From Candidatus Saccharimonadota bacterium (GTDB taxonomy: Bacteria > Patescibacteriota > Saccharimonadia > Saccharimonadales > 2-12-FULL-41-12): 64,000 nt of DNA. The notes beneath the pieces are model-generated. The model had not been told where the DNA came from. It did not search any database and was given only the letters and a program-made list of their open reading frames with translations. Below, in pieces: positions 10,451-17,433 of the stretch. Within the stretch, counting starts at the first letter, position 1. Every line of letters starts with the position of its first letter. Where the stretch lies: contig JALHOM010000007.1 in the NCBI GenBank assembly GCA_022842995.1, positions 78 to 64,077 of the forward strand. Reading direction: 5' to 3'. Both the position numbers and the translations under genes were made by a program.

Positions 10451-10534
10451 CAATTGTCAACTATAAGCAATAGCTTTATATAGAGCGAAGCCCCAGGTTC
10501 ACTTCCCTGTTTACGTTACGCTGTTTTATGGCCT

Positions 10535-10857
10535 GACGCTTGTATAGCGCCGAGGCGCATATAATCCGCAGTCTTTCTCGTAGCAATTCGCTGTACAGCG
10601 AACTTTGATTATCGTACTCCTTACGACAAATCCCTAGCGGGATTTCAACGCACTCTGAAGAGCGCGTTTATCGTCACGTGCTTTCAGCACTTGACGCTTG
10701 TATAGCGCCGCTGCGCATATAATCCGCGGTCTTTCTCGGAGCAAGCTCCTGCGAGAGCCTTTGATTATCGTATTAAATACGACAAATCCCTAGCGGGATT
10801 TCAACGCACTCTGAAGAGCGCGTTTATCGTCACGTGCTTTCAGCACTTGACGCTTGT
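10535..10857 (-). repeat. Tandem repeat (158 + 156 bp units plus a 9-bp partial unit) containing the smpB 3' end and hairpin modules
   Basis: The 80-bp block 10778-10857 (the last 22 smpB codons, the stop, and 12 nt beyond the stop) is repeated perfectly at 10622-10701. The unit junction GACGCTTGT occurs at 10535, 10693 and 10849. Confidence 0.9.
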
Positions 10858-11266
10858 CGTATTTTTTGAGGCCGACACCGGTGGCTATTCGAAGTTTGAT
10901 GTAGCGACCTTGGGTCAAAAGCTCGGTGGGAATAATTGATTTGCCTTGTTTTTTAGCCTCGATCAGCTGGTCTATCTCGCGTCTTTTTAAAAGCAGCTTC
11001 CGACTTCTGGTTTGCTCGGTTTCGTCTAGCTTGACCCCGTTAAATCCTGTAATTGTTGCGTTTAAAAGGAACAGTTCATTTCCTTTTTCGACCACGTAAG
11101 CGCCGCGTAGGTGGCCATGGCCAAGGCGCAAGGCTTTGGTTTCGGCTCCCGTCAGACTTATGCCCGCCACAAAACCATCGCCCAGGGCATAGTCGTGCCG
11201 AGCGCGCTTGTTGGTGATTTTTTTGGTCGTTGCTTGCTTCTTTTTAGCCATAACAGATGTATACAT
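10790..11266 (-). CDS. smpB: SsrA-binding protein
   Basis: 158 aa with NKRARHDYAL...GISLTGAETKALR...LRGAYV...RSRKLLLKRREIDQL...KGKSIIPT...LRIATGVGLKKYDKR. Confidence 0.95.
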   Translation of the reverse strand: MYTSVMAKKKQATTKKITNKRARHDYALGDGFVAGISLTGAETKALRLGHGHLRGAYVVEKGNELFLLNATITGFNGVKLDETEQTRSRKLLLKRREIDQLIEAKKQGKSIIPTELLTQGRYIKLRIATGVGLKKYDKRQVLKARDDKRALQSALKSR

Positions 11267-11550: not shown

Positions 11551-12693
11551 TTGTTTCTGGATTTCGCGTTTGCCGGTATCCCACAAACTTGGGTCGCCCG
11601 CTTTGACTTTGCGCCAGTACCACCACTCTACTCCCCAGACATCGATGGTCTTGATACCGGTGTTTACGCCGTATTCAATACGTTTCTCGAGTCTTTTGGC
11701 ATCGAGTGATTTATTCTGTTCTGGAATATGATCAGGATTATTCATCTTATAGCCTTCTGGGAGCCAAGCCTCAGTTTGGAGTTCGTGGATGATCATATCT
11801 TTGCCAGTGACTAGTTCACCGTATCCAGCAAGTGATGAATAGAACCAGCTTGGATAAGGGTATTCGAAGTAGCGTTTTGTAAGAGTTTTGTCCCAAACGC
11901 GTTTATAGACTGCCACGCCAAACTGATCAGGGGTCGGATCGCCGATTGGTACACCGCCCCAGTTATTGCTGCGGCTGATGGTGAGTTTGGTGTCTGGATC
12001 AATTCGTTTAACAAGCTCGTATTCCTCGACTAGACGTTCTCTGCTGAAGTCCGGGCACTCGCCAAATACGCTCATGAAGAACTCATTCTCAAGCTGGTAG
12101 CTTTCTAGTGCGGGGCTGTCTTTGTAGCGTTCCACGGTAGCTGCTATGAAGGCATAGAGATCATTTTTCCATTCGGCTATTGGCCTGCCTTTGGCCCATG
12201 CAGGCTCGTGGCACTCTGGCCAGCGTGGTTGCCTCAGGCCTATGGCAAGCGAAACTTCAACTCCAGCGGCTTCGGCTTTTCGGAACTGCCAATCAAGTTC
12301 GCTGAAGTCGTATGTACCTTTGGTTTTCTCGATATCTTTCCAGTAACTTACCAGCCGAAAGCGCTCAAATCCTATGTCATTGATCAAGGCGTCCATGGTT
12401 TCCTGGGGGTCAAGTCCAAAATAACGAGCGTAATTGGGTATAAACGTAGCCCCTATTTTGAGCTCTTCGTTTCGGTGTTTAACGGTGTAGTAGACGGATC
12501 CAAGATATGTAAAAAGTGTAATTAACCCAAAGCAAATTGCGAGCACGAGTGCTCCTTTTTGGACTACATTGAAGCGCTGAATGCGACTCTTGACTTTGGC
12601 CCACGTGCTGCCTGTTGATTTAGTGTATCTAGATTTTTGACTTCCCATTAAATCTCTAACCAAAAGCGGTTTACCTTTGCCATATGATAGCAC
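11533..12693 (-). CDS. Membrane-anchored glycoside hydrolase (TIM-barrel, clan GH-A-like)
   Basis: 386 aa with an N-terminal TM segment (ALVLAICFGLITLF) and the clan GH-A-like YQLENEFF (NE) motif, plus FRLVSYWKDIEKTKGTYDF. The start is uncertain: GTG at 12693 or ATG at 12648. Confidence 0.6.
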   Translation of the reverse strand: MLSYGKGKPLLVRDLMGSQKSRYTKSTGSTWAKVKSRIQRFNVVQKGALVLAICFGLITLFTYLGSVYYTVKHRNEELKIGATFIPNYARYFGLDPQETMDALINDIGFERFRLVSYWKDIEKTKGTYDFSELDWQFRKAEAAGVEVSLAIGLRQPRWPECHEPAWAKGRPIAEWKNDLYAFIAATVERYKDSPALESYQLENEFFMSVFGECPDFSRERLVEEYELVKRIDPDTKLTISRSNNWGGVPIGDPTPDQFGVAVYKRVWDKTLTKRYFEYPYPSWFYSSLAGYGELVTGKDMIIHELQTEAWLPEGYKMNNPDHIPEQNKSLDAKRLEKRIEYGVNTGIKTIDVWGVEWWYWRKVKAGDPSLWDTGKREIQKQLETRN

Positions 12694-12714: not shown

Positions 12715-13746
12715 ATGACGTCTAAAATCGAGCCAAATAAATCAGAGTTATACACAACCGTTGCCTGGGACTATGACGATATGAGGGCTAGTATCCCGGC
12801 ATTTATTCATCGGGCAGTCGATGAATTTAATGAACTGGAATTCGAGGACTTGCTACAGAATGCGACTAAGCATCTACGTCACGATGCGCAGTCTGGTCTA
12901 GAGTATCTGCATTTAAATACCCGTTCGAGCTCGGAAGATGAAGTGGTGGTGCACTTTAACCCATTTATGCTCAGTTTTGACGCAAATATGCTACTTAGAG
13001 CACGGTTTTTAGCCTCTTGCATATCAGCCAGTGAGATACGTGATGATACTGGCAAACGGCTGAGTTTGATTGGCTTTGCGTCACCCAATGGCGACGGGAC
13101 GTTGAGACTAAGCCGTCGCGAACGGCGTACGTCGGCCAGGGGTGATTTTTCTTTGCTGGCACGTAACTATATCGGAGTTATTTCGCGACTTGGATACAAA
13201 AAACTCAGGATTGTTGGTTACTCGCAAGGGGCAACTATTGCAGCGGCGGTTGCTGCAGAGGCGCTTCGATCAGGGTTGGGCGTTAGCCACGTTGCTCTCG
13301 GCGAGCCGGCCAATGTCATGCGCCGGGGTCCGCTTAGACTTGGGCGGGACTTTTCGGCGGCAAATCGGTTACTCAATAAGGCTATAGACGACGGTGGGCT
13401 TGAGCACATGAAACGATTCCACTTTTCTTATCGCCCTGCACTCGGCCTTATCTGGGCCTTTCGTAAGTCGCCACGCAAAAACATCAGTGTTATTCGTGGA
13501 CTAGGTAAAGACGGACTCAAGAAGGATCTTCGTATTTTGGCATCCAGTCCTGCCTCATTAACTGTGTCTTATGGGTCTTTGAATCGGGTATGTCCCAAAA
13601 AGGTGATCGAAAAAATATTCTTATCAGCCAGGAGCGACCCGGAGGCGCATTCGCTTCATTCGGTGGAGATCAAGGGCGCACATCATGTCTGGGGCGATAG
13701 ACTAGATCTTTTGGCTTACTTTTATTACTACGCACTTACTCGCTAG
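12715..13746 (+). CDS. Alpha/beta hydrolase family protein
   Basis: 343 aa with nucleophile elbow IVGYSQGA and a C-terminal KGAHHVWGD (candidate catalytic His). Confidence 0.65.
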   Translation: MTSKIEPNKSELYTTVAWDYDDMRASIPAFIHRAVDEFNELEFEDLLQNATKHLRHDAQSGLEYLHLNTRSSSEDEVVVHFNPFMLSFDANMLLRARFLASCISASEIRDDTGKRLSLIGFASPNGDGTLRLSRRERRTSARGDFSLLARNYIGVISRLGYKKLRIVGYSQGATIAAAVAAEALRSGLGVSHVALGEPANVMRRGPLRLGRDFSAANRLLNKAIDDGGLEHMKRFHFSYRPALGLIWAFRKSPRKNISVIRGLGKDGLKKDLRILASSPASLTVSYGSLNRVCPKKVIEKIFLSARSDPEAHSLHSVEIKGAHHVWGDRLDLLAYFYYYALTR

Positions 13747-13786
13747 AGCCAACGGACCATGGTTGGCGTGATATATTGAGTGGTAT

Positions 13787-14608
13787 ATGGAACGCACTGC
13801 AGGCCCTACGCTGTCAATTGTGATACCGGTGTATAACGAGGCGCTCGATCTTGCCGCTTGTTTAGATACGATTGCTCAGCAAACATCCGCGCCAGATGAA
13901 GTTATCGTAGTTGACAACAATTCAACTGACGAGAGTATGGAAATTGCTTTGCGTTATCCATTTGTCAAGATTGTTGTAGCCAAAAAACAAGGTATTGTGC
14001 ACGCCAGAAATGCTGGGTTCGATGCCGCAAAAAGCGACATCATCGGCCGGATAGATGCGGACTCTCGCCTCAAGCCTGGTTGGGTTGAGTCGGTGAAGCG
14101 ATATTATCATAGCCAAGAACACATGAGTCGTGCAGTGAGTGGACGTGGCTATTACTATAATCTGAGGTGGCCGATGTTTGCGGGTATGCTCCAGCACGAC
14201 ATCGCTTTTGAATATAACCGTTTAATTTTGGGAGGCTATATTTTGTGGGGATCAAATATGGCTATTCCGCGTACTTTATGGCACGAGATTAAGCAGGAAG
14301 TTTGTCGACGTACCGATATTCATGAGGATATCGACCTGGCCATACATCTAAAGCATCGTGGATATTCGGTAGATTATCGCAAGAGCTTGATGGTGGGCGT
14401 AAAGATGCGACGCATACATACCGAAAGGACTCAGCTGTGGCCGAATCTTATGCTGTGGCCAAAAACCTTTAAGGCCCACGGTTTTCCTGCTTGGCCAATG
14501 GCAACATTCGGAGCGATTTTCCTGTACTTTTCGGCCATGCCTCTTCGGTGGTTCGAAAGGTTTACGATGGCGACAGCCGGTCGGCCTCGCCGCAGGCGTA
14601 ATATCTAA
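13787..14608 (+). CDS. Glycosyltransferase family 2
   Basis: 273 aa with LSIVIPVYNEA, VIVVDNNSTDES and RIDADS (DxD-like). Confidence 0.85.
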   Translation: MERTAGPTLSIVIPVYNEALDLAACLDTIAQQTSAPDEVIVVDNNSTDESMEIALRYPFVKIVVAKKQGIVHARNAGFDAAKSDIIGRIDADSRLKPGWVESVKRYYHSQEHMSRAVSGRGYYYNLRWPMFAGMLQHDIAFEYNRLILGGYILWGSNMAIPRTLWHEIKQEVCRRTDIHEDIDLAIHLKHRGYSVDYRKSLMVGVKMRRIHTERTQLWPNLMLWPKTFKAHGFPAWPMATFGAIFLYFSAMPLRWFERFTMATAGRPRRRRNI

Positions 14609-14691
14609 GGCGACCGTGTATGGGACCCTTGTTATCGGCTAAGATCTGGCCGTCGCACTGGATTATTTTCGTGGGTTGATATAATAGCCTG

Positions 14692-15921
14692 ATGCGCATC
14701 GGAATTTTCACTGATGATTATTATGCCCGAGAAAGTGGCATGATCACGTCTATTAATCTCCTTCGCCAAGGTCTCGTCGAGGCTGGTCACGAAGTGTATA
14801 TAATTGCCCCGCGACCAGATAAAAAACACCCGCTTCCGGCAGATGACCATGTTGTTTTGGTGAGGTCGTTTAGCGCTATTTTATTTAAGGGTATCCGCTC
14901 TGCTATCCCGACCAAAAAAGAGTACCGCAAAATAGTCGATCTCGAACTCGATATTGTGCATTCTATGACACAACATAACCTCGGTGTGCTGGCCTATAAA
15001 GTGGCCCAAGAATTGGACATACCCCACGTAACGACGTATCACACCATGTTTCCAGAGTTGGCGAGGTTCTACCCTCACAGAGTCGTGATTTTAACGTTCT
15101 TTACAAAGTTTCTTTATGGAAAATGGCTCGGTATTGGCAACCAGGTTGCTTGGCCAAAAATAAGCTGGCTGTATAAAGTCCCAGAATCCGATAAAAAGGA
15201 TTTTATGAGAGATGGATGGGAAATGATTGCTGCCTTTGGTGAAGTCTGTGACGGAATCGTCGTGCCCTCGAGGCATATGGGGAAAATACTACTGCCTCAC
15301 CAGGAATTTGAACGTCCTATGGCGGTAGTTCCGACGGGAATTGACAAGGACTTCTTTGATGGTGAGCGAACTCGATCGTTTCTTCGAAAAAAACAACTAG
15401 AAGTAGCAGTCATTGGCCGTGTCAGTGACGAAAAGAGAGTATCGACTATTATCGAAGCGCAAAACGATGTCGACAATGTGAGGCTACATATTGTTGGAGA
15501 TGGGCCGGAATTGCCAGTTTGTAAGACAAAAATTAAATATCTAGGCCTTGAGAGTAGAACGATTTTTTATGGCGCAAGAACCAGAAAATTTGTGAGAAAA
15601 ATTCTACTAAAGAGTGATATTTTGGTTTTAGCGTCGCTTGATTTTGATACCCAAGGCATGGTTTTGCTGGAAGCGGCAGCCGCGGGAACCCCCGTGGTTT
15701 ATTCTGACAAAAAGCTAGCCAAAAGTTGCGCGCCGAAGGGTTCGATTTGCGCCGGACCAACCAAAGATCATTTACGGCAAGTTTTCGAGCGATTGCTCTC
15801 AGGAGGCTATGATCTAGAAGCTATGTCAGTGTATTCCAAGGAATTTGCAGCGCTTAACACGTATCAGTTATTCGCCGCCAAAACGGTATCTTTCTACGAA
15901 AAACTACTCAAAAACAAATAA
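14692..15921 (+). CDS. Glycosyltransferase family 4 (glycolipid-synthase-like)
   Basis: 409 aa. The N-terminus MRIGIFTDDYYARESGMITSINLL...GHEVYIIAP and the GT-B C-terminal motif GMVLLEAAAAGTPVV are present. Confidence 0.8.
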   Translation: MRIGIFTDDYYARESGMITSINLLRQGLVEAGHEVYIIAPRPDKKHPLPADDHVVLVRSFSAILFKGIRSAIPTKKEYRKIVDLELDIVHSMTQHNLGVLAYKVAQELDIPHVTTYHTMFPELARFYPHRVVILTFFTKFLYGKWLGIGNQVAWPKISWLYKVPESDKKDFMRDGWEMIAAFGEVCDGIVVPSRHMGKILLPHQEFERPMAVVPTGIDKDFFDGERTRSFLRKKQLEVAVIGRVSDEKRVSTIIEAQNDVDNVRLHIVGDGPELPVCKTKIKYLGLESRTIFYGARTRKFVRKILLKSDILVLASLDFDTQGMVLLEAAAAGTPVVYSDKKLAKSCAPKGSICAGPTKDHLRQVFERLLSGGYDLEAMSVYSKEFAALNTYQLFAAKTVSFYEKLLKNK

Positions 15922-15950
15922 TCCCCATAAGAACTAGATTTTCCTCGCAT

Positions 15951-15998
15951 TTAACCCGGGTTAGCGAGAAATTTATCGTCGAAGTGATGCTTAACCAA
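15951..15998 (-). pseudogene. Displaced copy C of the cobO 3' end (reads LVKHHFDDKFLANPG*)
   Basis: My translation of the reverse complement. Across the shared codons it differs from the live cobO end only at synonymous positions. Confidence 0.7.
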
Positions 15999-16077
15999 GC
16001 CTCAAAAAAAGCAGGCTTTTCCGGGGACCCCGTAGCGAAAATCAAACGCCAAGATTTCACGGTCCATCTTGGCCTTA

Positions 16078-16134
16078 CTAGTAATCTATGCCTGGGTTGG
16101 CTAAAAACTTGTCATCAAAGTGGTGTTTGACCAT
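16078..16134 (-). pseudogene. Displaced copy B of the cobO 3' end (reads MVKHHFDDKFLANPGIDY*)
   Basis: My translation. It has 6 nt differences from the live end over 45 nt, all synonymous. Confidence 0.75.
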
Positions 16135-16212
16135 GCCCCAGAAAAACTAGTTTTCCCGGGGGCCCCGAATGAAAATTAAGCATCACGGTCTGACAAGGCT
16201 CGTACAGTCTTA

Positions 16213-16782
16213 CTAGTAATCTATGCCTGGGTTGGCAAGGAATTTATCATCAAAGTGATGCTTAATTTTGGTCATGTTGGTGGCGATGTCTACTTTTGGA
16301 AGAAGTTGTTCTGGAAAATCACGTCCAGTGAGGCATAGGCTGGTTTGTGGGTGTTTTTTGTCGATTAATTCTTCTAGTTTTGATACCTCTAGTAAACCGT
16401 CATGGACCGCGTTGTTGATCTCGTCGCATATAACCAACTGATACTCTCCGCTCGAGGCGGCTTTTAAGGCCTCTTGATATGTTTCTTCGGCTGCTTGTTT
16501 GTGTTGTTCCTCGCTGACGTTTGTTGCGCTCAAGTCGCCGGCAGAGTAAAACCCCTTGCCACCTTTATAAAAATAAAGCTGATCGCCATAAACTGGCTCG
16601 ATGTCGCGGATAAAGGCGTGCTCACCGACGCCCCAATATTTGATGAACTGTATAAAGGCGACGTTCCAGCGGGTGCCGAGGGCACGTGCTAAAAGCCCGA
16701 CAGAGGCGCTGGTTTTACCCTTCCCTTCACCGGTATAGACAACAACGACGCTGTCTTTGGTTTTGAAATCTTCGAAGGCCAT
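16213..16782 (-). CDS. cobO: ATP:cob(I)alamin (corrinoid) adenosyltransferase, CobA/CobO/BtuR family
   Basis: P-loop VVVYTGEGKGKTSASVGLLARALG, FIQFIK, and LVICDEINNAV. I use the ATG at 16782 (MAFEDFK...) rather than the track start at 16818. Confidence 0.8.
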   Translation of the reverse strand: MAFEDFKTKDSVVVVYTGEGKGKTSASVGLLARALGTRWNVAFIQFIKYWGVGEHAFIRDIEPVYGDQLYFYKGGKGFYSAGDLSATNVSEEQHKQAAEETYQEALKAASSGEYQLVICDEINNAVHDGLLEVSKLEELIDKKHPQTSLCLTGRDFPEQLLPKVDIATNMTKIKHHFDDKFLANPGIDY

Positions 16783-16794
16783 TACACTACAGTT

Positions 16795-16872
16795 TAAAGG
16801 TAAAAGAGTAAAGAGCAAAGTTTAAAGACCAAAGACCAAAGATTAAAGATTAAAGAGCAAGAGTAAAGCGTG
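16795..16872. repeat. Purine-rich word-repeat tract (AAAGAnn units) just upstream of the cobO start
   Basis: The tract reads taaaggtaaaagagtaaagagcaaagtttaaagaccaaagaccaaagattaaagattaaagagcaagagtaaagcg. The same word family appears at 38821-38850, 38985-39005 and 52075-52156. Confidence 0.7.
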
Positions 16873-16899
16873 AAGGGCTGGTTGGCTTAGGGGAAGAGT

Positions 16900-17433
16900 T
16901 TAGTTGTATATTGCTTTGGCTCGTCTTTCGGGCGAAAGTGCAACAGAAGTAGAAATATCATTTCGAGTTGCGTCGGGCGAGGCAGATTCTTCATTTAGTG
17001 CATCCATCCCCTTTGTCTTTTTATCCCACGCTATGATTGATTTTTGGATTTTTTCAAGTGAGTCCTGTATGGACTTTACGGCCCACCTGAACTCGAGTTG
17101 GAAGGGGGTTTCTGCCGTCGCTGTTATATATACGGCTAGTCCTGAAACAGCCGATAGAGTAGTTGCTTTTGGCTCATAAACATTTCCGTTGTCTGCCTCA
17201 TGTATAAACAGACTAAACGAAGGAATCATCAGTGCACCAGACATAAGGGTGTGTCTGACGTCTTGTGCTTGGGATGATCTTCCTAGGCGATATTCTAGGT
17301 CGGGATTGAGGTGTGGAAGGTTTTGATAAAGCCCGTCGCGCTCGCCGGGATTATCTGTTGGCGCGACATACGCTCGTTGGTCGATGTAGCGTAGAAATTC
17401 AGCAGTTTTGCGTGGCGGTAATTGAGAGATCAT
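16900..17433 (-). CDS. Hypothetical protein
   Basis: 177 aa. A strong RBS AAGGAGG lies 6-7 nt upstream of the ATG. No motif recognised. Confidence 0.6.
   Translation of the reverse strand: MISQLPPRKTAEFLRYIDQRAYVAPTDNPGERDGLYQNLPHLNPDLEYRLGRSSQAQDVRHTLMSGALMIPSFSLFIHEADNGNVYEPKATTLSAVSGLAVYITATAETPFQLEFRWAVKSIQDSLEKIQKSIIAWDKKTKGMDALNEESASPDATRNDISTSVALSPERRAKAIYN

Follow-up and report, generated by a model that had tools for sequence, protein, structure and literature searches.

Stacked cobO gene ends and a folded, gene-specific spacer in a Saccharimonadota genome: possible serial insertion of a small cassette

The classical case of a prophage that brings a replacement 3' end to a protein-coding gene is that of e14 and phage 21 at icd in Escherichia coli. 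Where elements enter the same gene end repeatedly, they may accumulate in tandem, as with the integrative and conjugative element (ICE) ICESt1 and the cis-mobilizable elements (CIMEs) at fda of Streptococcus thermophilus (PMC5704250) and the ssrA islands of Dehalococcoides, with their many tandem repeats (PMC3146451). The arrangement considered here is far smaller. On a 64,000-nucleotide stretch of a Candidatus Saccharimonadota genome (contig JALHOM010000007.1; hereafter the window), cobO, the gene for ATP:corrinoid adenosyltransferase, is followed by two further versions of its own 3' end, and all three versions differ from each other at synonymous sites only. The spacer between them is a conserved, structured, cobO-specific module carrying a 13-nt complement of the insertion site, and smpB offers a parallel in the same window; both had gone unnoticed in an earlier examination of these letters alone (the sequence-only reading). 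The stacked ends may record the serial insertion of a small cassette.

The locus was compared with a set of about 90 loci. A genome scan confirmed 576 cobO relatives, and 80 of these were kept as species-representative loci, almost all of them labelled Saccharibacteria or Saccharimonadales, to which close relatives were added. The nearest relatives, L081 and L084 (89-90% amino acid identity), have the spacer, termed sp1, and no intact displaced copy. The parts of the window array, all on the minus strand, are as follows.

16213-16782, minus strand: cobO, live gene including its stop codon (Pfam PF02572, E=1e-46); the stop is TAG at 16215-16213
16257-16269, minus strand: IRL-A, AAAATTAAGCATC, codons K-I-K-H-H; holds the insertion point (between AAAA and T) and forms the left arm of a long-range helix
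16213-16265, minus strand: repeat A, the live 3' end, TTAAGCATC...TAC TAG; first part of inserted unit A (16265-16131), from MAFFT alignment to L081
16131-16212, minus strand: spacer sp1-A (covariance model 67 bits, E=2e-15)
16184-16172, minus strand: IRR-A, GATGCTTAATTTT, in sp1-A
16166-16158, minus strand: GGGGCCCCC, in sp1-A
16161-16136, minus strand: hairpin H-A, in sp1-A
16078-16130, minus strand: repeat B, displaced former end, TCAAACACC...TAC TAG; 44/48 identical to the L081 and L084 live ends
15995-16077, minus strand: spacer sp1-B, counterpart of the single sp1 of L081 and L084 (covariance model 66 bits; alignment to L081)
16050-16038, minus strand: IRR-B, GGCGTTTGATTTT, in sp1-B
16031-16023, minus strand: GGGGTCCCC, in sp1-B
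16026-16000, minus strand: hairpin H-B, in sp1-B
15951-15994, minus strand: repeat C, most distal displaced end, TTAAGCATC...CCG GGT TAA; no amino acid change against A or B

The gene end and its two copies lie where the sequence-only reading had placed them. Copy B reads (M)VKHHFDDKFLANPGIDY to a stop at 16080-16078, 135 nt past the live stop, and copy C reads (L)VKHHFDDKFLANPG to a stop at 15953-15951. Homology of copy C to cobO breaks off abruptly after NPG; from B to C it is 136 nt by the K codons and only 127 nt by the stops, because homology in C ends three codons early. The spacers, as had also been noticed, are homologous to each other yet more diverged than the coding repeats. Tandem Repeats Finder does not report the cobO array, whose repeats are overall not identical enough.

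Counted from the K codon, A and B differ by 7 nt in 6 codons, A and C by 7 nt in 7 codons, and B and C by 11 nt in 10 of 13 codons, with 0 amino acid changes in every comparison. The sequence-only reading had been right that all differences from the live end are synonymous and had counted the seven between A and C correctly; its six for A and B missed AAG/AAA. Its codon alignment holds, and the formal permutation-type test that it had proposed bears it out: when the same number of substitutions is placed at random (kappa 2), the probability that all are synonymous is 2e-5 for A and B, 5e-6 for A and C, and <5e-6 for B and C. The proportion of synonymous sites changed among the three ends is 0.86 to >1, that is, saturated. 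With the three comparisons pooled, the window has 23 differing codons, none of them amino acid-changing. Nor do relatives show the same three copies with random divergence. L081 and L084 have no intact copies, and displaced copies outside the window are synonymous-biased overall, with that of L083 decayed and that of L046 partly so; all loci pooled give 35 synonymous-only against 17 amino acid-changing codons (P=6e-5 against a model of freely, neutrally decaying dead copies). These comparisons support the view, already put forward in the sequence-only reading, that B and C were probably functional cobO ends, shaped by purifying selection for the CobO protein and displaced later, and the fit of B to the live end of the sister lineage agrees with it.

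Neutral decay of an ordinary tandem duplication is excluded: about three amino acid-changing substitutions per synonymous one would be expected, and in the window 0 of 23 differing codons alter the amino acid, with the probabilities given above. The head-to-tail layout, and spacers more diverged than the coding parts, would suit such a duplication or an artefact of metagenome assembly, but an explanation of this kind has hardly any chance of being right. Exact-match look-ups of the window CobO and SmpB gave no match, and the neighbouring glycosyltransferase gene led to an independent Logan assembly, contig L089 (SRR28154522), that is 99.9% identical to the window, ungapped, over 5051 nt. Its five mismatches all fall outside the array, which therefore is not an assembly artefact; the longest exact repeat within the array, as read from the sequence, is 28 nt. 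Gene ends with displaced copies are found moreover in assemblies from JGI, ENA, NCBI, and Logan.

A second explanation for such strict conservation is that the displaced copies are expressed as peptides mimicking the C-terminus of CobO or SmpB and are under direct purifying selection. The absence of replacements at saturated synonymous sites in the window would fit, B and C happen to begin with ATG and TTG, and the reading frame is open across the hairpin in L010, L046, and L082. However, neither a start codon nor the spacing of a ribosome-binding site is conserved, in-frame stops lie 3-6 codons upstream of the copy in window B, window C, and L083, and L082 has no start codon at all. In L083 and L046 the copies have acquired a stop or several replacements, and copy C is without its last three residues. 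As other species' copies share no start codon and these upstream stops are present, the ATG and TTG of B and C are taken to be incidental and translation of micropeptides to be unlikely; the peptide explanation as a whole is very improbable.

The order in which the ends arrived can be read from the sister lineage. The cobO genes of the window and L081 are 22% different, with a third-position identity of only 49%. In a MAFFT alignment the live end and sp1 of L081 align with copy B and sp1-B, and the window equals L081 plus a clean 135-nt insertion at 16265-16131 (new end plus sp1-A), between ACCAAAA and TCAAACACC. The current live end of the window matches the live ends of L081 and L084 at 38 of 48 positions, against 44 for copy B, so that B is the resident end and A a later arrival that came with a spacer whose IRR fits A.

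The spacer itself has a regular anatomy. After the stop codon sp1 begins with about 30 nt of variable sequence and nearly constant length, followed by an invariant 13-nt motif, GGTGTTTGATTTT (IRR), and by GGGG-N-CCCC. An 11-bp hairpin, CCCC-NN-AAAA ... UUUU-NN-GGGG, and NNNG complete it, and the displaced copy follows, beginning with T(C/T)AA(A/G)CA; these junctions are base-identical across independent lineages. In reverse complement, IRR equals AAAATCAAACACC, a segment of the gene itself (IRL, codons K-I-K-H-H) that lies across the left edge of the cobO repeat. In all seven sp1 copies that adjoin a live end, IRR pairs with IRL at 13 of 13 positions, counting Watson-Crick and G.U pairs, and the offset between them is fixed at 82-85 nt. 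The window has the IRL variant AAAATTAAGCATC in its live gene and the exactly matching variant GATGCTTAATTTT in sp1-A, giving 13/13 Watson-Crick pairs with three positions compensated. The IRR of sp1-B matches the start of copy B at 11 of 13 positions, and IRR is able to pair alternatively with the start of the displaced copy, the two together forming an imperfect inverted repeat that encloses the hairpin. For both helices 97% of cells are paired, as opposed to 40-60% with the partner slid, and five pairs change on both sides; the observed values were reached by 0-4 of 500 shuffles, and RNAalifold was also run. Several helix positions hold conserved G.U pairs alternating with A-U, so that mRNA or single-stranded DNA of the sense strand can adopt the fold and the antisense strand cannot. 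Folding z-scores for sp1 are modest, at -0.7 to -2.2. A scan of 15700-16900 for terminators found no canonical Rho-independent terminator, hairpin H having its U-run inside the stem and no U-tract after it, and no convincing promoter was found within the array. At the insertion point AAAAT is present in 7 of 7 independent spacer-bearing lineages and in 29 of 80 others (P=0.0014).

The stop codon leads straight into the next gene, without sp1, in most of the 80 cobO loci. Extra downstream copies of the C-terminal peptide were detected by tblastn in L010, L046, L060, and L080, and among the fetched loci sp1 follows cobO in the window (twice), L010, L046, and L081/L084, with its first half only in L060. 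An exact-pattern scan of metagenomes returned two matches, L082 and L083, both of them cobO ends with a displaced copy, and the same pattern had no match in viral contigs. A covariance model of the 58-nt core scores the known copies at 66-76 bits and recovers no further sp1 either in the 64-kb window, scanned with filters off, or across related loci totalling 935 kb. The sp1 module is seen solely at cobO ends, in six independent Saccharimonadales lineages; in a tree of the cobO body its loci are scattered over five separate clades. Among the 80 species loci and their relatives it is restricted to loci with a duplicated end, plus L081/L084. Duplication of the cobO end recurs in 6-7 lineages; cobO and smpB are universal genes, and spacer modules are carried by just 7-9% of species. 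Another spacer type, sp2, occurs in L060 and L080, flanked by a duplicated end that starts 6 nt later than with sp1. It lies at 6568-6700 in L060 and 6568-6656 in L080 and has two covarying hairpins and the junction CTCATTAYCGT/CAYTTYGAC (slash, junction). In L060 the first half of sp1, including IRR, is joined to sp2, a hybrid that suggests modular exchange or nested insertion. Rfam 15 gave chance-level matches only at the cobO array, four related loci, and the smpB array, thus for sp1, sp2, and the smpB spacer, and neither cobO nor smpB array has a tRNA or tmRNA.

A scan for C-terminal tails repeated downstream, covering 2698 open reading frames (ORFs) in the window and all loci, brought up only cobO and smpB. 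The smpB array has the same architecture.

10790-11263, minus strand: smpB, with its live repeat at 10856-10790 and IRL, AAATACGACAA, at 10864-10854 (ORF scan; tblastn to the PF01668 gene in L081)
10701-10789, minus strand: spacer spS-1, 89 nt, with IRR, TTGTCGTATTT, at 10785-10775; two hairpins lie inside it, and a third, terminal one (10721-10701) abuts the next repeat
10634-10700, minus strand: repeat 2, displaced copy, matching the live end at all 67 nt
10543-10633, minus strand: spacer spS-2
10480-10542, minus strand: repeat 3, decayed partial copy, CAAGCGTCAGGCCATAAAACAGCG...; distal end at 10480 approximate; also decayed in L081

The array was found in just 3 of about 44 smpB loci. It is present in L081 (14080-14440) as well as in the window and is therefore older than their split; the third locus, in the distant species L022 (11240-11520), has one repeat with five synonymous-only and two amino acid-changing codons. 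The smpB spacer, too, carries a segment complementary to its gene, here at the start of the spacer, and the gene sequence that it matches lies where the repeat has its left edge. In the window TTGTCGTATTT pairs with AAATACGACAA at 11 of 11 positions, and in L022 TTGTCGTAGTG pairs with CACTACGACAA, likewise 11/11 and including a lineage-specific His codon outside the repeat; in L081 only 7-8 of 11 positions pair. Between window and L081, spS-1 is 82-86% identical, the last ~110 nt of smpB together with the array 82-96%, and the body of the gene 70-80%. In both the window and L081, the synonymous variants found in copy 2 are those of the live end in the same genome, a case of concerted evolution. 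The smpB coding end (10805-10825, minus strand) also has, as read from the sequence, a potential 7-8-bp hairpin, CGCGCUCU-UC-AGAGUGCG, which is duplicated with the repeat. Over the smpB repeats, at 10648-10691 and 10804-10847, the opposite strand gives weak matches to the Rfam family Acido-Lenti-1 (18 bits against a gathering score of 37), probably by chance.

The array at cobO could be the outcome of serial insertion of a small cobO-specific cassette carrying a replacement end, followed by gene conversion within the array, and this proposal is judged to have about an even chance of being correct. The cassette, of ~135 nt, would comprise a complete replacement for the last 17 cobO codons and the stop, then ~30 nt of variable sequence, the 13-nt IRR, GGGG-N-CCCC, the 11-bp hairpin, and four bases ending in G. 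It would enter between AAAA and T of the K-I codons, after which cobO would end in the cassette's own end and the previous end would be shoved downstream, untranslated. At least two insertions would be needed for the window, displacing first C and next B. Each end would have been a working cobO end, in this or a related lineage, until displaced, and hence the copies would differ at synonymous sites only. The repeats would afterwards swap patches. Gene conversion is suggested by mosaic identity in the arrays, seen in the 3' half of A and B (their differences are confined to the first nine codons, the last seven codons and TAGTAAG being identical; Fisher P=0.01), in the 5' part of L010, and in copy 2 of smpB. 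Units would presumably also be lost by recombination between repeats, and such collapse would account for the patchy distribution among species. Movement of the whole cassette is inferred, as are a role of the folded spacer, with its IRR pairing across the junction, as a determinant of recombination or targeting, and a catalyst acting in trans. The catalyst might be a trans-acting site-specific recombinase using the folded spacer. Alternatively, DNA taken up by natural transformation might recombine through RecA, and the displaced copy would then provide the homology arm on the right. Natural competence, with recombination of the DNA taken up, is established for Saccharibacteria (PMC10633639).

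A wider proposal can be put forward only tentatively and is on balance doubtful: Saccharibacteria, members of the Candidate Phyla Radiation (CPR), may harbour an undescribed class of recombinase-less miniature mobile cassettes in the 3' coding region of housekeeping genes, here cobO and smpB. Such cassettes would keep the host gene intact through their own replacement end and would carry a guide-like complement and a hairpin. Their active form may be a folded single strand in the course of natural transformation, or they may be acted on by a host recombinase, and the stacks of synonymous-only ends would be their fossil record. No description of a gene-end-carrying mini-cassette was found in the searchable literature, and a literature search on Saccharibacteria with integrase and attB returned nothing.

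Several observations weigh against insertion. Its polarity is testable in one lineage only, as L010, L046, L082, and L083 have no sister close enough. Third-position identity to L081 runs flat along the cobO body, at 41-56%, which makes it a poor guide to import, and no imported tract is visible by this measure upstream of the repeat. The C-terminal class of the live end (NPGIDY or NKGIDF) always matches the clade, so that any donors would have to be rather closely related, as a dependence on homology would lead one to expect; the match is also compatible with vertical descent of the live ends. Conservation between window and L081 in the 3' half of sp1 and in most of the smpB array is well above the 49% identity of synonymous sites, which points to a function of the spacer cores, either as RNA structure in the 3' untranslated region (3'-UTR) or as an active recombination site, rather than to a passive scar. 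Copy C is a puzzle: it has 0 amino acid changes in 13 codons despite a position implying great age. Orthology of sp1-B and the L081 sp1 would place the displacement of C before the split of the two lineages, across which synonymous sites are saturated. Recombinase Pfam families are absent within 8 kb on either side of the syntenic cobO locus in L081, a recombinase motif screen of the window, a weak test, was negative, and no free, circular, or larger parental element turned up in any collection searched. An excised circle closed head to tail would, at its junction, read just like a tandem array.

The main rival takes up several of these points. It holds that sp1 and the smpB spacers are vertically inherited, functional 3'-UTR RNA modules in an array that expands and contracts and undergoes conversion from the live end. 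Possible roles would be stabilisation of the mRNA 3' end, termination, or a switch that senses translation, with IRR pairing either to the coding sequence or to the beginning of the copy downstream. The repeats would be by-products that conversion keeps gene-like, and the patchy distribution would reflect frequent loss. Two covarying helices with many G.U pairs tolerated on the sense strand only speak for such a module, as do spacer cores conserved far above neutral sites, the match of C-terminal end class to clade, the ability of IRR to pair alternatively with the start of a copy, and, at smpB, an array common to window and L081, a second copy that tracks its own live end, and an IRR in L022 that matches a lineage-specific His codon outside the repeat. 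It leaves unexplained, however, 13 or more synonymous changes with 0 amino acid changes at saturated synonymous divergence, for a dead copy refreshed by conversion would either match the live synonymous sites or change randomly. Nor does it sit well with the clean 135-nt insertion relative to the sister lineage, with carriage by only 7-9% of species when the genes are universal, with the lack of an Rfam family or canonical terminator, or with the modest folding z-scores. The RNA-module explanation is considered fairly improbable; cassette mobility and functional RNA may both be partly true.

The sequence-only reading had seen in the copies the footprint of serial site-specific integration or allele-replacing recombination. 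Displaced ends, and the polarity of insertion in the one test available, lend this partial support; a derivation of the ~80-bp pieces from larger elements is not supported. In that version the copies would be attachment (att) scars of successive integrase-bearing elements, whether prophages, ICEs, or integrative and mobilizable elements, whose bodies were deleted to ~80 bp. A duplicated 3' end of a target gene is indeed their classical footprint, accretion builds tandem arrays (PMC3146451, PMC5704250), and synonymous-only divergence fits. Yet no larger insert, adjoining integrase, or second repeat within 6 kb was found at the ~90 cobO and ~44 smpB loci, and viral contigs, INPHARED phages, and PLSDB plasmids contain no carrier of the cobO end or spacer. 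Had the deletions been independent, six lineages would not share identical junctions and a conserved 58-nt core. The att-scar origin is thus regarded as quite unlikely. A recombinase core site in the cobO target (palindrome ATCAAA-CACCAC-TTTGAT) was tried and rejected, its scores failing to separate spacer-bearing loci in a scan that was one codon off. A miniature inverted-repeat or other transposon was likewise discarded, as the left ~30 nt of the spacer are unconserved, only a 44-67-nt gene end is duplicated, and there are no copies elsewhere.

The surroundings of the array vary among relatives. On its distal side it is bounded by a convergent gene.

14692-15921, plus strand: GT4 glycosyltransferase gene (Pfam PF13439/PF00534)

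This neighbour of cobO is also found in L081 and L084 and is absent in L085. Together with a 343-aa ORF that has a weak thioesterase match, it occupies 12715-15921 of the window; both genes are present in L081 and L084. In the syntenic region of L085 (6606-7530) neither is present and cobO converges directly on a GT2 gene, which places a two-gene indel directly beside the cobO array. Four of the five mismatches between window and L089 cluster in 65 nt (12600-12664), just upstream of the ORF starting at 12715, and could be a small recombination patch or strain variation. On the other side, the 5' leader or promoter region of cobO (window 16796-16868, minus strand) has about ten tandem CTTTRRT heptamers with a period of 7/14/21. 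Such heptamers are also found, variable in copy number and sequence, at 7930-7995 in L081 and 20-100 in L084, and are absent in L085, L010, and L082.

Should the cassettes prove mobile, they would rank as the smallest elements known to integrate inside coding sequence without damage, and their target complement would suggest a choice of site guided by base-pairing or by the hairpin, in a lineage with very few known mobile elements that has become genetically tractable only recently, via natural transformation. If the spacers are functional 3'-UTR structures, they would be new CPR RNA motifs, each pairing with the terminal part of the coding sequence to which it belongs. On either reading the stacked ends would preserve past alleles of a housekeeping gene as a dated series. 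A gene tail repeated less than 200 nt downstream is a signature by which similar systems can be searched for, and short 'pseudogene' tails behind conserved CPR genes should not be written off as assembly noise.

Set beside the described systems, the cobO and smpB ends share features with several. As in ICE and CIME accretion, the old end is displaced and kept as a direct repeat, repeated events lead to arrays, and, as with CIMEs, elements without an integrase of their own persist between att repeats (PMC5704250; PMC3146451); here direct repeats of ~44-53 nt at cobO and 67 nt at smpB flank each spacer. CIMEs and islands, in contrast, are kilobases long, carry cargo, and have integrase-bearing relatives, whereas the cobO and smpB units measure 135-157 nt, no such relatives were found for them in any collection, and no relative shows a recombinase or cargo. 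The cobO array is further set apart from CIMEs by junctions that are base-identical across lineages, a built-in complement of the insertion site, and a CPR host. Replacement and displaced ends at icd differ, as here, mainly at synonymous sites, selection for the same protein acting on both; e14 and phage 21 are however complete prophages with an integrase that entered in a single event, and at cobO three ends are stacked 135 nt apart.

Silent cassettes, shufflons, and diversity-generating retroelements also keep untranslated partial 3' copies beside an expressed gene and exchange sequence with it. There, however, the protein is diversified, while the cobO copies encode the same amino acids. 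A diversity-generating retroelement with template and variable repeats (TR/VR) was rejected specifically, in that the cobO differences include T/C and C/T in both directions, are not adenine-specific, and are all synonymous. Integron cassettes are alike in being inserted newest-first at a fixed array head and in that every unit is closed by an imperfect inverted repeat with a single-stranded fold. Among the cobO junctions only those of window C and L046 (G/TTAAGC and G/TTAGAC, the slash marking the junction) fit the integron core G/TTRRRY; most are G/TCAAR, and IRR does not fit RYYYAAC. The cobO array follows a housekeeping gene, with no IntI, attI, or Pc seen beside it, and unlike that of an integron the target of the cobO cassette is housekeeping coding sequence. 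In its logic the cobO array resembles integron attC sites, whose consensus fits only in part, or CIMEs, for which no integrase-bearing relative was found.

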